32,000 bases of DNA from Caedibacter taeniospiralis (GCF_002803295.2 NZ_PGGB02000009.1:21318-53317), one strand, 5' to 3'. Positions 3-32,000 are shown, counted from the first letter of the stretch. Notes: generated by a model not told the origin, from the letters alone. Translations and numbers: made by a program.

Positions 3-275
3 ACTGCACATTTATTGGAATATGCAGATAAGGGTTTTGTCTCCCCTGTATTAGTTGATAGTACCGTCCTGACACAGATCTATAATGGTGTCTACGGTTA
101 CCTTGGCTATCAAAATCTTTCTGATCAATATGACAAGCATTATAGGAACGAGTATATTGTTTTAGGTAATAAGAGTCAGGAAGGATTAAATAGGGATAAA
201 CAGGGTGCCTCGGGCCTCATGATAGATTTTGTATATCCATACACAAAATCGAATCGGCTATCCTCGGCGGTATAA
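3..275 (+). CDS. hypothetical protein, 5' end outside window; frame stops just inside the GC-rich repeat
   Basis: The frame is open from nt 3 (the ORF track lists it from TTG at 15). I recognise no motif. TAA at 273-275 lies a few nt inside the repeat block that starts at 268, so the native 3' end may have been displaced. Confidence 0.35.
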   Translation, partial: TAHLLEYADKGFVSPVLVDSTVLTQIYNGVYGYLGYQNLSDQYDKHYRNEYIVLGNKSQEGLNRDKQGASGLMIDFVYPYTKSNRLSSAV

Positions 276-569
276 ATTTTGCCCGGGCCGCCCGCCTCAA
301 CGGTGCTTGTCCTCACAAATTCGCTACGCTCATTCCGAACAGACAACACGTTTCCGATTCTACTCTACGCCTTGGGTAAAAGCTTTTTCACAGACTTCGC
401 TCTGGCGCCTTCGGCACGCGGTATAAATTTTGCCCGGGCCGCCCGCCTCAACGGTGCTTGTCCTCACAAATTCGCTACGCTCATTCCGAACAGACAACAC
501 GTTTCCGATTCTACTCTACGCCTTGGGTAAAAGCTTTTTCACAGACTTCGCTCTGGCGCCTTCGGCACG
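268..569 (+). repeat. two head-to-tail copies of a 151-bp GC-rich unit (268-418 and 419-569), identical by eye
   Basis: Direct comparison shows cggtataaattttgcccgggccgcccgcctcaacggtgcttgtcc...ctctggcgccttcggcacg occurring twice with period 151. Track ORFs 229-426, 279-530 and 430-705 are only translations of this repeat. Confidence 0.95.
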
Positions 570-643
570 TCGCTTGCTGATCAACAGCGCAAGGCTACCC
601 GGGTCTACTCGCCCTCGCGTTCCGCTATCCATGGCTCGCAGCG
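569..643 (+). repeat. 75-bp segment, copy L; exact reverse complement of 31926-32000
   Basis: gtcgcttgctgatcaacagcgcaaggctacccgggtctactcgccctcgcgttccgctatccatggctcgcagcg directly abuts the second 151-bp unit. I checked the reverse complement of the last 75 nt of the window base by base. Confidence 0.95.
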
Positions 644-664
644 GAGGTAGAACAGCACCATCCC

Positions 665-1453
665 ATGTTCCAAGAAATCAACTATGCTATAGAGCTTCTA
701 TATGATCAGTTGAGCAAATCTGCAGAGGTTGATATCAGTAAAATTGCACAGGCATTGGTTAATTCACGCCATATTAATTCAATCGTACGGGCTATAAAAC
801 ATTATGAAAATCATAAATTTAACGCGCTTTTGCCCAACAACCCTGACAATGCAGCGTTTAACGCCATCAACCAAAGCCTGCTGCCACTTTATACTTATTT
901 AAAAGATCACAATATCAAGCTTGAGAGCTTTATTGGTGACTTGAATAAAATGAGAATAGCCAAAGTTGAGTTGAACGAAAAACTGGAGAATTTACTTGAG
1001 CTTATAACAAACAATACAGACAAGACAAAAGCCCCACTGAATAGTTATCTTTACACCTATTACCAGGAAGGGACTGTTCAGGTTGGTGATAAACAGATCA
1101 AGGTATGTTTGCCAAGATGTGTTCTGGATGCGTATGATCCTGCTTCTGCTAGTAAGAATACGGGATCATATAATCTGCAAACAGTGGTCAACAATCTTAA
1201 AGAAGCCTTAGAAGAAGCTAGTGATAGTGTTCTCCAAACGCCCATCGCAAAAATTAACGACACGAGAAAGAGTCTGGATAAATGTTATGAGGTAGTCTTA
1301 AAAAAACCATTTAAAGAACAACTCGAGCATGATGGTAAAGTGCTATTTGAAAAGGCTCCGAACAACGAGTTAAACAAAGACTCGAAAAACATGGAGTGGC
1401 TGTTTTGTGATAATAACGGAAAAGAGAAGAATGTGAGTCTAGACAACGCATAA
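665..1453 (+). CDS. hypothetical protein (orphan, K/E/N-rich, effector-like composition)
   Basis: 262-aa ORF with coding-like composition throughout and no recognisable motif. The frame is also open upstream to 581, inside the repeat, so the ATG at 665 may not be the ancestral start. Confidence 0.55.
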   Translation: MFQEINYAIELLYDQLSKSAEVDISKIAQALVNSRHINSIVRAIKHYENHKFNALLPNNPDNAAFNAINQSLLPLYTYLKDHNIKLESFIGDLNKMRIAKVELNEKLENLLELITNNTDKTKAPLNSYLYTYYQEGTVQVGDKQIKVCLPRCVLDAYDPASASKNTGSYNLQTVVNNLKEALEEASDSVLQTPIAKINDTRKSLDKCYEVVLKKPFKEQLEHDGKVLFEKAPNNELNKDSKNMEWLFCDNNGKEKNVSLDNA

Positions 1454-3205: not shown

Positions 3206-4603
3206 TCAGATATAGCAGGCTTTTGCAACCTGATTTTGGTACTCCACAAGTGCTTGCCCAAGTTCTTGATCAGCTGCTACACCCGATGCTAATAGGGTAT
3301 TTGTTAGGGCAACAATATCTGTTCCACCAGCTAACCTAAGGCGCAAAGCATCAGCGGAAACACCAGTTAATAAGCTATGCACGGTGATCACTTTGGTGGC
3401 ACCTGCATTCTCGACATCAATCAATCGCGCCCCACTTAGGCCGTTTAAAATCGAAATAACTGTACTGTTGTTAGGCGTTGTAGCTGTGGTAATTAACTCC
3501 CTTAAGCGGTCAATATTTTCAGGACCCGACCAGGTTCCGTGCGAGCCCGGTCCTGCCAAGTTGGGCGAGTCGTGCGCATTAGCTGACGTATTGTGCGTAA
3601 TTGCTGGCTGCCCTGTTTCCAGTATGGTTAAGTGACCGTCTAGTACTCTTGAATTCCCTGCCACCCCACTTGTAACACCATCCGCGATTAATGGATGGTA
3701 TTTGACTATGACATTATCCTGGTTGCCTGTACCTATCGGCACTAAAAGTCGACCTAACTTCTGCTGTGCAACAAAGTAGACAAGCGTATTACCACAACGC
3801 GTTTCCATGGCAAGTGGTGTATTGGTCACTTGACTATCGTAAGTGTGAATCAAAGGTACGTTAAACGGATATACAAATTGTGCACCCGTCGTAGCGTCTA
3901 GCCAAGCAGCGGCATCTTCCTCACTAATATTTGCCGTATGATAAGCAGCTTCCAAAAGCACGCCTATGTTAGCACCAGCTGCTGCTGCAACAGCAGCAGT
4001 GAGTGGATTATTGACAACCGACACGGGGATGGTTTGACGGACAACCTCTCCTGTTACGGTATTGGTCGCATCAATGGTTATCATCAGCTGCTCGGCGCGA
4101 TAGCCGTTTGCACTATCTAGTACGTGTCCTCTGCGAGTTAGCACATTAACAGTTAATTGGCAGTCAGCACCATAGTGCAGTGTTCTTCCAGCACAGGTAT
4201 TTGTAACAACGTCTATACCAACTGGAACAGTGAAACTAAGGCTATACGGATCACCACTGCCTACCGTCATCACTCCGCTTTGGCGAACATCAAGGGTGTA
4301 GGTATTTTGATTAATAGCCGACGCCAGTAATGCTTTTTGGTTATTCACATCGCTTGCAACATGAACTGTTGTTGGGGTAACCCCGCCAGCAGTGTCACCG
4401 CCACCTCCGCCACCGCATCCACTGAGACCTCCTGCTACAGCTAAAGTAGCTAGCAAATACCTCGCAGCATGTTTGCGGAAGCGTGTGACATAGTCGTAAG
4501 TTTCGGCATTACTGACCAGGCTTATGCACTTTTTTTTATCAACACCTTTAGCGCACTGCGCTAGAGATGAAGCGATTTTTAATTGATTTTTTTCTGCTTT
4601 CAC
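3206..4603 (-). CDS. orphan lipoprotein
   Basis: 465-aa ORF with a lipobox, LLATLAVAGGLSG-C, followed by a GGGGGG linker. About 45 aa precede the signal peptide and there is no closer in-frame ATG. The gene is visibly GC-richer than its neighbours. Confidence 0.65.
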   Translation of the reverse strand: MKAEKNQLKIASSLAQCAKGVDKKKCISLVSNAETYDYVTRFRKHAARYLLATLAVAGGLSGCGGGGGGDTAGGVTPTTVHVASDVNNQKALLASAINQNTYTLDVRQSGVMTVGSGDPYSLSFTVPVGIDVVTNTCAGRTLHYGADCQLTVNVLTRRGHVLDSANGYRAEQLMITIDATNTVTGEVVRQTIPVSVVNNPLTAAVAAAAGANIGVLLEAAYHTANISEEDAAAWLDATTGAQFVYPFNVPLIHTYDSQVTNTPLAMETRCGNTLVYFVAQQKLGRLLVPIGTGNQDNVIVKYHPLIADGVTSGVAGNSRVLDGHLTILETGQPAITHNTSANAHDSPNLAGPGSHGTWSGPENIDRLRELITTATTPNNSTVISILNGLSGARLIDVENAGATKVITVHSLLTGVSADALRLRLAGGTDIVALTNTLLASGVAADQELGQALVEYQNQVAKACYI

Positions 4604-14341: not shown

Positions 14342-14535
14342 CAAGCAACGGATGGCAACCTTAACGGATGAAGGTAGAAATGGATAGCCCCTCCCCCGCA
14401 TGGATGAATTGATGAGGATAAGGATATCCTGAAAACTAAAGGATAAAGTAAAGGAAGACATGGATAGCACTCCACCCACATGGATGAATTGGTTAGGATA
14501 GGGATATCCTGAAAACCTGACATTTTTCTCTTTGT
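14342..14535 (+). ncRNA. candidate CsrA/RsmA-titrating sRNA (RsmY/RsmZ/CsrB-like); boundaries approximate
   Basis: There are 12 GGA triplets on the + strand within 14350-14504, against 3-4 on the opposite strand. Several sit in an A(N)GGAUG context (acGGAtg x2, catGGAtga x2). Two hairpins present AGGA/GGGA in the loop (agga-taaggata-tcct at 14415-14430, agga-tagggata-tcct at 14495-14510). The last hairpin is followed by a T5 run at 14523-14527. There is no credible ORF. Confidence 0.45.
14380..14516 (+). repeat. two diverged 57-nt direct repeats, period 80 bp, each ending in a GATATC-centred palindrome
   Basis: Copy 1: atggatagcccctcccccgcatggatgaattgatgaggataaggatatcctgaaaac (14380-14436). 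Copy 2: atggatagcactccacccacatggatgaattggttaggatagggatatcctgaaaac (14460-14516). Confidence 0.85.
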
Positions 14536-15638
14536 TCCCTAATCCCCCATTCGATGTGTTCTAGCAATAATGAATGGTTGATGTACTTATTTCTAGCGTG
14601 ATACAGAATGCCAAGAATTTCAGCCGAAGCTGGGGCATTACCTAATGCAACGTATACATTTCTAAGCCAGGACTGGTAACCAATTCGGCGAATTGCTGAG
14701 CCTTCAGTGTGCTTCAAGAAATCTTCTTCTGACCATTGTGAGAGGGAAATGAGAGTCTGGTTGGTTAAATATGCTCGCGCCAAAAAATCATTTTCGCATG
14801 TTATTGGTGCATTTTTATTGATGGGACACACAAGCTGGCAATCATCACAACCGTAGATACGATTACCAATGGCCTGGCGATATTCCATCGGAATAACCCC
14901 TTTATTTTCAATAGTTAAGTATGAAATACACTTGTTGGCATCGATCATTCGATTTTCAACGATGGCGTTAGTTGGACAAGCCTTAATACAGGCCTGGCAT
15001 TTGCCACACTGATCGTGGGGCTTTGGTTGGGTAAATGCGCTAAAATCAAGACTGGAATAAATGCAGCCGATGAAGAAAAAAGAGCCCTCCGTGGGATGGA
15101 GCAAGTTACTGTTTTTGCCTATCCAGCCAAGTCCAGCCTTTTCGGCTAAGGGCTTTTCAAATACTGGTGCACTATCAGTGAAAACACGAGCCGCATATTC
15201 AGGGAAAAGCGTTTGAATATACTCAGATAATTTCACAAGTTTATTGCGTAAAACTTTATGGTAGTCTCTGCCGTGGGCGTAGATGGAAATAGCTGCCTTA
15301 TCAGAGGGCGTGCTTAATTTTTTACGAATATTTTTAATATCATAGCTTTGCGGTAAATAATTCAATCTCACAACGATAACGCTTTTAGTACCTGCGACAA
15401 GCTCCTCTGGCGTGTAACGTTTGCTGCCATGTTTGGTCATATACTCAAGCTCAGCGTGATAACCCTGTTCAATCCACAGGTGATATTTGGGAATATACTC
15501 ACTCAGGTTGCAATCGGTTGCACCAATATCAGAAAAATTAAGAGTTTTAAGTGCAAAGTCTTTAATGCGACTCCATTGTGTCGTGCTTACGTTACGCATT
15601 GTGTTGTCTGCTGTGAATTCAAGCACTTCTGACGGCAT
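14493..15638 (-). CDS. queG: epoxyqueuosine reductase
   Basis: Two 4Fe-4S motifs ([12 protein letters not shown] and CDDCQLVCP) and a QueG-like N-terminal domain. Start set at MPSEVLEF (15638) because the longer track ORF runs through the tRNA-Ser gene. Confidence 0.88.
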
Positions 15639-21982: not shown

Positions 21983-22098
21983 CACAAGCATTTTCAAAAA
22001 ATAAAAAAGCCCGCCTGAGCGCCGCTTTCATATGCTCTTTGTCGATTGTTATGCTAAAATGTCGCCCACTTTAACACCCAAAAAATGAATTTATTCTA

Positions 22099-25063: not shown

Positions 25064-25069
25064 GAATTA

Positions 25070-25088
25070 TGGCGTCCCCAAGGGGATT
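25070..25088 (-). other. 19-nt fossil of a tRNA-Glu 3' end (putative att site, left island junction)
   Basis: The reverse complement is AATCCCCTTGGGGACGCCA: end of T-loop, T-stem 3' half, acceptor 3' half, discriminator G and CCA. As I recall it, the E. coli tRNA-Glu 3' end is AATCCCCTAGGGGACGCCA, an 18/19 match. No D-arm or anticodon arm follows, so this is a fragment and not a gene. Confidence 0.6.
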
Positions 25089-25256
25089 AGACTTATGTTA
25101 GTTAAATCTCTGTAATATATAGTTTTAATGCGTCGCACATAAAATTAGGTATACGTTTTGGCATACACATTAAAATTTCCATAATACAGCCCGTCTAATC
25201 AGACACAGCCAATACTATCACAAGGAATTATGAAAAACCATAAGGGGGATAAAATT

Positions 25257-31830: not shown

Positions 31831-31944
31831 ATGAAGCTTTATGATATTAATCAGGAAATTATGCAGGTTATCTGCGAAGCGGTTGACGTTGAAACAGGCG
31901 AAGTGATCGCTGAGCTTGATACCGACGCTGCGAGCCATGGATAG
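31831..31944 (+). pseudogene. Gp157-like phage gene truncated after ~32 codons by the 75-bp repeat
   Basis: MKLYDINQEIMQVICEAVDVETGEVIAELDTD resembles the N-terminus of Sipho_Gp157-type proteins, which usually sit next to recT/erf. From 31926 the sequence is the repeat, and the frame stops at TAG 31942-31944. Confidence 0.5.
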
Positions 31945-32000
31945 CGGAACGCGAGGGCGAGTAGACCCGGGTAGCCTTGCGCTGTTGATCAGCAAGCGAC
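31926..32000 (-). repeat. 75-bp segment, copy R (inverted relative to 569-643); cut by the window end
   Basis: Exact reverse complement of 569-643. Identity starts at cgctgcgagccatgg and runs to the last base of the window. Confidence 0.95.

Follow-up and report, generated by a model that had tools for sequence, protein, structure and literature searches.

The stretch of DNA analysed here, referred to below as the window, comprises 32,000 nucleotides of Caedibacter taeniospiralis (NZ_PGGB02000009.1, 21318-53317). Its gene content, including proS, lpxC, rplM-rpsI, clpA and prfB, is chromosomal and not plasmid-derived, and contigs of a Caedibacter-like organism match it at 99.6% identity. Near the left edge of the window an ORF is split by a GC-rich block, and at the right edge a prophage ORF runs into a second, inverted copy of the same sequence; a profile search found exactly these two copies in the window. 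The features at both sites are as follows.

3-200, plus strand: upstream part of the split ORF, inside which the window starts (ORF listing, in-frame rejoining)
201-643, plus strand: complete but rearranged copy of the element, 443 bp, first base C (pKAP298 and 22 further loci compared by BLAST and nhmmer)
201-266, plus strand: left arm, the variable base and element positions 1-65, invariant across the copies (alignment of copies)
208-213, plus strand: first (CCTCGG) of the three CYTCGG motifs in direct orientation (motif count)
225-250, plus strand: left subterminal hairpin GATTTTGTATAT/ATACACAAAATC, 12-nt arms that are 92% complementary, the only stem in the centroid DNA fold
267-417, plus strand: first copy of the inner segment, element positions 66-216 (repeat searches)
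418-568, plus strand: second, 100% identical copy of the inner segment (repeat searches)
569-643, plus strand: right arm, element positions 217-291, with the end CCATGGCTCGCAGCG (alignments)
644-1453, plus strand: downstream part of the same split ORF, in which a later ATG at 665 gives the listed 262-aa ORF
31831-31925, plus strand: start of a prophage ORF, next to recT, running into the antisense second copy (ORF and annotation)
31926-32000, minus strand: inverted right arm of the second copy, cut by the window end at element position 217 (repeat search, BLAST and profile)

The second copy lies in a prophage early region with genes for RecT, a replisome organiser, a DnaC-like loader and an AlpA-like protein. 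This region is part of an integrated element, an island or prophage carrying AlpA-like genes, that extends from 25065-25091 to the window end at 32000: a related strain (L004) matches the window up to 25091 and then diverges, and the point of divergence in that strain (15006-15081) falls within a tRNA-Glu gene whose 3' part alone is retained in the window. Two further repeats of other kinds were seen in the window. At 2099-2548, within an ORF on the minus strand (1311-2834), three tandem 150-bp units that are 100/79/71% identical encode, in frame, the 50-aa repeats (…LEQHKEDLALSKIKLEEEQAK…) of a 507-aa protein, which has no Pfam match and belongs only to a PHROG family of unknown function. At 14371-14516, upstream of a queG-like gene, a spacer of 80 nt separates two direct repeats of 66 nt that are 85% identical.

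Tandem Repeats Finder resolved window 267-569 into one array of period 151 with 2.0 copies, 100% matches and no indels, and a direct-repeat search returned two 100% identical units (267-417 and 418-568), followed by a 75-bp non-repeated tail (569-643). An earlier note on this DNA, made from the sequence alone, had placed a block of two units and a terminal segment at 268-643. The repeat it described is real and no product of chance, but its bounds are not those of the conserved sequence: in alignments, homology of the window to plasmid pKAP298 begins at 202 and not at 268, so that the conserved block starts at 201/202 and 66 bases had been missed, and every other copy carries window 202-266 too. 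The note had also called the block richer in GC than its surroundings, which holds (55.6% in 268-643 versus 42.2% across the whole window), and had read the ORFs over it as mere translations of the repeat, which the ORF listing bears out. It had recognised no tRNA, rRNA, CRISPR or group II intron; in agreement with this, searches for tRNA, rRNA and CRISPR gave nothing over the block, nor did the Rfam scan that the note had proposed, either at the gathering threshold or at E = 10.

When 72,556 plasmid records were searched with the block, the sole match was the C. taeniospiralis plasmid pKAP298 (NC_005915.1), in five places.

38855-39145, plus strand: pKAP298 copy, 100% identity
22037-21747, minus strand: pKAP298 copy, 100% identity
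25356-25646, plus strand: pKAP298 copy, 99.3% identity
33404-33116, minus strand: pKAP298 copy, 95.9% identity
32013-32124, plus strand: 112-bp derivative that keeps element positions 1-83 and 259-291

All full copies on pKAP298 carry one 151-bp unit. A scan with the left-end 20-mer revealed 17 more insertion sites in metagenome contigs, nearly all of them within ~125 bases of a contig end, indicating that the repeat breaks assemblies. A six-frame chimeric peptide query recovered element-encoded peptides as the C-terminal tails of three annotated proteins, namely the P4-type integrase and Cas1c of C. taeniospiralis and, from a JGI sample, a repeat protein; the loci of the integrase (L029) and of the repeat protein (L030) hold further copies. 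Beyond the plasmid there are ~20 sites in Caedibacter-like chromosomal and metagenome contigs, and the single-unit copies are 94-100% identical. No copy was found in the phage collection and the viral contigs, and among genome contigs the 20-mer gave two chance matches only (Gemmatimonadaceae, Treponemataceae), the source genome apparently lying outside that collection. As far as these searches reach, the family appears to be specific to C. taeniospiralis and close relatives. Searches of the literature with the end sequences and for Caedibacter repeats retrieved no description of the repeat; the study of pKAP298 by Jeblick and Kusch (2005) was beyond reach.

From these copies we conclude with high confidence that the block belongs to a dispersed family of mobile repeats, of which it is a rearranged copy. 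The earlier note had suggested a mobile element and asked for a copy count, and the count of ~30 sites in the sequences reached supports its lead, with a unit number that varies only in the window copy. Its concern that the block might be a contaminant or an assembly chimera can be set aside for the element itself, because pKAP298, which was Sanger-sequenced, and at least five independent assemblies contain it; a vector or other contaminant is likewise at odds with pKAP298 being the only match among the plasmids and with the lack of any phage record.

Alignment of the copies defined a canonical element of 292 bp, one variable first base plus 291 conserved bases, running from 5'-H-AGGGTGCCTCGGGCC to CCATGGCTCGCAGCG-3'. 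The window copy is organised as left arm (201-266), unit (267-417), unit (418-568) and right arm (569-643), i.e., element positions 66-216 (151 bp) are doubled head to tail, which accounts for 443 bp versus the canonical 292 bp. A single unit is present in all ten other full or nearly full copies, and the duplication is private to the window copy; two units plus a terminal segment is a private rearrangement and not, as had been proposed, the architecture of the family. The alignments thus identify window 201-643 as one element with an internal duplication rather than a composite of units. Since no other copy has more than one unit and the two units do not differ, the alignments also point to a single, very recent duplication of the inner 151 bp in the window copy, and the active homogenisation that the earlier note had offered beside a recent duplication is superfluous as an explanation.

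Of the two breakpoints of the duplication, one lies where the second CYTCGG motif ends and the other 3-4 nt past the third. This motif occurs thrice in direct orientation, at element positions 7, 61 and 208 (P ~0.0015 in mono-nucleotide shuffles, post hoc); in the window, the first occurrence is followed by those at 262-267 and 409-414 and by a duplicate of the third at 560-565. The motif reported at every unit boundary is therefore genuine in the form of three direct CYTCGG copies in the single-unit element, but its fourth member, GCTCGCAGCG, is only loosely similar. The duplication junction, GGCAC/GCGGTAT, has microhomology of at most 1 nt, which argues that the motifs did not mediate simple slippage, as this would have given a period of 147. 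The reported enrichment in palindromes did not hold up either. The excess of palindromic hexamers in 268-643 (11 versus 5.4 expected) results from counting duplicated sites twice, and the single-unit element has 8 versus 4.3 expected (P = 0.07).

It is rather improbable, in our assessment, that the 151-bp duplication (as opposed to the element) is an artefact of assembly. The duplication is seen in this one copy only, and the last base of the window (32000), which is element position 217, is equivalent in the second copy to the breakpoint at 569 in the first; the second copy may end there because the contig ends at a branch of the assembly graph, and this coincidence, which hints at such a branch, is the main reason why some doubt is reserved for the duplication. 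However, with only 1 nt of microhomology the junction does not originate from a mis-traversed k-mer graph and must be present in the reads, and the reads published for the species are 2 x 300 nt and not 151 nt long (PMC5773718).

The element has no coding capacity, as stops occur in all six frames, and promoter and terminator scans of it returned nothing, including no promoter-like site at the left end. Its two strands showed no excess folding stability over shuffled sequence (z-scores +0.45 and +0.55), nor did its separate ends when folded as DNA or RNA. The hairpin at 225-250 lies ~23 nt inside the left end, and its stability is not significant versus shuffles; an inverted-repeat search and DNA folding detected no comparable or significant hairpin at the right end. 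With a seed of 6, no inverted repeat was found to join the termini, and by eye there is only a gapped resemblance of ~15/22. Conservation is concentrated at the ends. Among ten copies, variable columns numbered 1/83 on the left (a single variable site in columns 2-84), 23/111 in the middle and 4/97 on the right, so that 5/180 columns of the ends versus 23/111 of the middle are variable (Fisher P = 1e-6). The well-conserved ends are each ~85-95 nt long, and both internally deleted copies retain both of them. Conserved ends around a variable middle form, by this comparison of copies, the pattern expected of cis-acting ends.

Sequences with partial resemblance to the left end were also observed. 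On pKAP298 (L001), an AT-rich segment at 48084-48130 on the minus strand is 81% similar to element positions 1-47, with nothing recognisable beyond it, and may be the decayed remnant of an old copy or else a left end on its own. In locus L017 (280-387, minus strand, and 2878-2913), a different small repeat starts with the element's first 25 nt (AGGGTGCCTCGGGCCTCATGATAGA) and continues as ...GGAATTACCGGCAAGTAGCC, a 36-nt relative (AGGGTGCCTTGTATCGGGAATTACGGGCAAGTAGCC) lies 83 nt away, and the GGAATTACCGGCAAGTAGCC part recurs on the other side of a 769-aa gene. The terminus AGGGTGCCT may, to judge from these sequences, be common to more than one repeat family. The L017 hybrid was considered as an autonomous relative on account of the 25 nt in common and was rejected, since it carries no ORF.

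To define what is inserted, we rejoined the halves of interrupted ORFs. In all three clear cases (the left copy of the window, the pKAP298 copy at 22037 and the integrase in L029), the halves rejoin in frame only when the element plus one nucleotide is removed. In the window, removal of 443 nt joins ORF 15-200 to 644-1453 in frame. The rebuilt L029 integrase reads ...IPMHSKVRALLLEL... and is as long as the closest intact homologues (60-64% identity), whose conserved Arg it keeps at the junction; with +4 or -2 nt in place of +1, a residue is lost or gained. The L030 copy interrupts a series of 15-nt coding repeats (GGAGGAGGAATACCT), in the order left flank ...GGAG, T, element, GAGGAATACCT, and removing T plus the element restores one exact unit. 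These reconstructions of the ORF, the integrase and the L030 repeat run indicate that the base before AGGG belongs to the insert and that no target bases were duplicated or deleted. The flanks of nine complete copies have nothing in common that could be a target-site duplication. By these reconstructions, the insert adds exactly its own length to the target, without target duplication or deletion. The rebuilt window ORF (3-200 plus 644-1453) has no homologue among 5.8 billion proteins, so that no empty site can be obtained from homologues, and cross-comparison of all flanks revealed neither a shared nor an empty site among the loci.

These junctions bear on the reading of the element as a classical MITE, i.e., a deletion derivative of a DDE insertion sequence. 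Size below 500 bp, multiple copies, lack of coding capacity and ends that are retained in internal-deletion derivatives would all suit a MITE. There is, however, no terminal inverted repeat and no target duplication at the sites that can be judged, and an element that is GC-rich and mostly intragenic is the opposite of the usual description (PMC10969869), which makes this origin very unlikely.

The extra first base was T at 13, C at 8 and A at 5 of 26 sites and never G, and L030 adds a further T, giving 27 sites without G. It partly tracks subfamilies, being T in 7/7 copies of variant B and C in three identical copies. A single extra 5' base with this preference (T > C > A) could be an untemplated addition to a cDNA, as would be expected if the element were RNA-mediated and retroposed in a SINE-like manner, copied by a resident reverse transcriptase such as that of a group II intron. 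The conserved target bases described below adjoin the 3' junction, and pKAP298 does encode a group II intron reverse transcriptase. Against retroposition, the association with subfamilies argues that the extra base is mostly inherited, all copies retain both ends with none truncated at the 5' side, and the left end lacks a promoter-like site. To our knowledge, no SINE-like retroposed element of this kind has been described in bacteria, and we regard this route as quite improbable.

The intron on pKAP298 (39185-41058) is itself decayed. Rfam places its domain V/VI at 40945-41058, maturase-like sequence continues in a different frame after the reverse transcriptase ORF (39601-40626), and D1-D4 models match at positions 101-219 only. 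The element copy at 38855-39145 occupies the place of the intron's missing 5' hundred nucleotides. A link between element and intron was tried and rejected, because a 5'-truncated intron remnant next to one copy with no sequence in common is all that connects them.

Element copies lie inside genes in both orientations, and many of the host genes are otherwise intact. Sense copies were found in the integrase, in Cas1c and in the ORF adjoining the pKAP298 terminase gene. Antisense copies removed the N-terminus of a DUF1016/YhcG nuclease (Pfam match from model position 76/137) and of a GlgC-like enzyme (from 39/245), and a third gene, encoding an integrase core (rve) and a Mu-transposase C-terminal domain, likewise extends as far as the junction. 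The type I-C cas1 (P0003) and the P4-type integrase (P0001; L029 10001-11436, beside P2-like tail genes) are each truncated by an element copy; apart from the insertion, the L029 integrase is intact, with all catalytic residues present. In L030, the copy landed in a run of long GG(I/V)PG repeats of protein P0002 (525 aa, 164-1741). This protein has a conserved core (…F.FPFNVPLI.TY…) in common with a 465-aa protein encoded in the window at 3206-4603 on the minus strand, and neither protein has a Pfam match.

Several sense copies lie in ORFs that are continuous once the element is removed, and the element ends in G, as a self-splicing intron or another structured RNA gene might. Such a reading is effectively ruled out by the antisense copies inside real genes, leaving it only a trace of probability. 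Rfam also detected no domain V/VI of group II introns in the element, its sequence lacks the Rfam match expected of a group I intron, even at E = 10, and its folding z-scores are ~+0.5; internally deleted copies exist; and the base preceding it is T, C or A instead of a conserved U.

The 27 left and 10 right flanks are mutually unrelated, and position-specific counts over 26 left and 9 right flanks revealed no conserved base directly adjoining either end. A preference emerged further away from the right end, where, in the ten right flanks that are the whole basis of this target pattern, the fourth base is G in 10/10 sites (P ~3e-7, or ~6e-6 allowing for 20 positions) and the fifth is A or T in 10/10. 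On the left, the last target base is A in 16/26 flanks counted. Two independent sites, L011 and pKAP298 39146-39152, both continue with the seven bases TATGAAG beyond the right end, and two more pairs of sites match in their first four bases (AGCG, GAGG); sharing of this kind, slightly above chance, hints at a further preference at +1 to +3.

Weak target specificity without target duplication is what a serine or tyrosine recombinase would produce when integrating a circular form into pseudo-sites, as in IS607, Tn4451 or Tn916-type elements. Several right flanks are loosely similar to the element's own left end (e.g., GAGGTAG versus HAGGGTG), and the direct CYTCGG repeats are putative binding sites for such an enzyme; a circular form would show the junction GCAGCG-N-AGGGTGCC. 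We nevertheless judge this unlikely. The identical dinucleotide that a serine recombinase would leave at both junctions is missing, there is one variable base instead of the 5-7 coupling bases of Tn916/CTnDOT-type elements, and the left target flank is unlike the element's right end.

Asymmetric ends without inverted terminal repeats or target duplication, and a subterminal hairpin ~23 nt inside the left end, are likewise features of miniature elements derived from IS200/IS605 (PATE-like), which a Y1 HUH transposase moves as single-stranded DNA. That family needs a fixed target of 4-5 nt 5' of the left end, and none was found on either side in either orientation; moreover, no similar hairpins are evident at the left and right ends and no TnpA was found among the sequences examined (pKAP298 annotation). 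We accordingly rate this derivation, too, as an outside chance.

Overall, window 201-643 is probably a copy of a short non-coding, non-autonomous element that is moved in trans without target duplication. In each family considered, the tested defining features are lacking, and it is by this exclusion that a mechanism at the DNA level is proposed. The element would be mobilised by a protein supplied in trans, which would recognise both asymmetric ends, possibly via the direct CYTCGG repeats, and would cut one base outside the conserved left end. Joining would occur at sites of loose specificity, ...A^NNNG(A/T)..., and would involve no staggered cut of the target, as might be expected of a single-strand (HUH-type) enzyme or a site-specific recombinase rather than a DDE transposase. 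To this class of mechanism we give an even chance. No autonomous partner was detected: none of the DNA examined has both ends flanking a gene, the full-length copy with a transposase that the earlier note had advised looking for was not encountered there, and the pKAP298 annotation lists no HUH protein, serine transposase or Y1 TnpA.

The variable first base, the lack of a conserved abutting base and a G three bases off the junction, taken together, fit no known family that inserts without duplication. Precise insertion without duplication, inverted ends or a fixed abutting target, combined with a free 5' base and the G at +4, could conceivably reflect a transposition chemistry without a described precedent among bacterial insertion sequences, though we would put this at the lower end of what is plausible. 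It might, for instance, depend on a new partner of the HUH or recombinase type, encoded at another place in the Caedibacter genome, or else on retroposition by a reverse transcriptase.

The element disrupts genes. Within the window it split an orphan ORF and a prophage gene, and it explains truncated genes in C. taeniospiralis and relatives, among them cas1c, the P4-type integrase, the terminase-adjacent ORF of pKAP298, the glgC-like gene and the nuclease gene, as well as the breaks of these genome assemblies at one and the same sequence. It appears to have been active recently, as judged from plasmid and chromosome copies that are 100% identical and from the absence of any site common to the strains sampled. 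Obligate endosymbionts are often assumed to be shielded from mobile DNA, and recent activity is therefore noteworthy in this endosymbiont of Paramecium. Its plasmid pKAP298 is the R-body plasmid. The repeat provides a clean, high-copy small element with junctions that match no established transposition family, and its partner enzyme, once found, could add a new mechanism or a variant of one.

Among known systems, the closest in general appearance are the prokaryotic MITEs such as Correia, Chunjie and QMITE1/2 of Coxiella burnetii. Like these, the element is non-coding, shorter than 500 bp (292 bp, with no transposase gene) and present in many copies (~30 sites) on chromosome and plasmid, has internally deleted variants, can truncate or extend host ORFs and reaches high numbers in a bacterium that is confined to its host and whose genome is decaying. 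Unlike MITEs, it lacks inverted ends, target duplication and a stable overall fold, and it is GC-rich in an AT-rich genome and mostly intragenic. PATEs and REPINs, which depend on Y1 HUH enzymes, resemble it in the absence of inverted ends and of duplication, in asymmetric ends and in a subterminal hairpin at one end; unlike them, it has neither the tetra- or pentanucleotide target at the left end that is fixed in IS200/IS605 nor an evident hairpin common to both ends, is not palindromic and has no partner gene in view.

Insertion without duplication and without inverted repeats is also known from IS607, IS110 and IS91. At an IS607 insertion both junctions carry the same dinucleotide, IS110 targets are highly specific and IS91 needs GTTC or CTTG beside one end. 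None of these junction or target hallmarks is seen in the element, in which the junction dinucleotides differ in most complete copies, ~30 target sites are unrelated and neither GTTC nor CTTG abuts an end. Helitrons have in common with it the lack of inverted repeats and duplication, asymmetric conserved ends and a preference for A 5' of the insertion point; TC...CTRR termini, a 3' hairpin near the end and a Rep/helicase partner are missing and the host is a bacterium, so that this is a resemblance only.

Small non-autonomous repeats are documented in other host-restricted bacteria, namely the QMITEs of Coxiella and the palindromic elements (RPEs) of Rickettsia (PMC5896051, PMC10969869). RPEs are, like the element, short repeats within genes of an obligate intracellular bacterium, but they are palindromic, in frame and translated, whereas the element has a net length of 292 nt (1 mod 3) that shifts the frame, contains stops in every frame and truncates its host genes. 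On the evidence of its sequence and distribution, the element behaves like the small non-autonomous repeats of host-restricted bacteria while being a member of none of the families tested.
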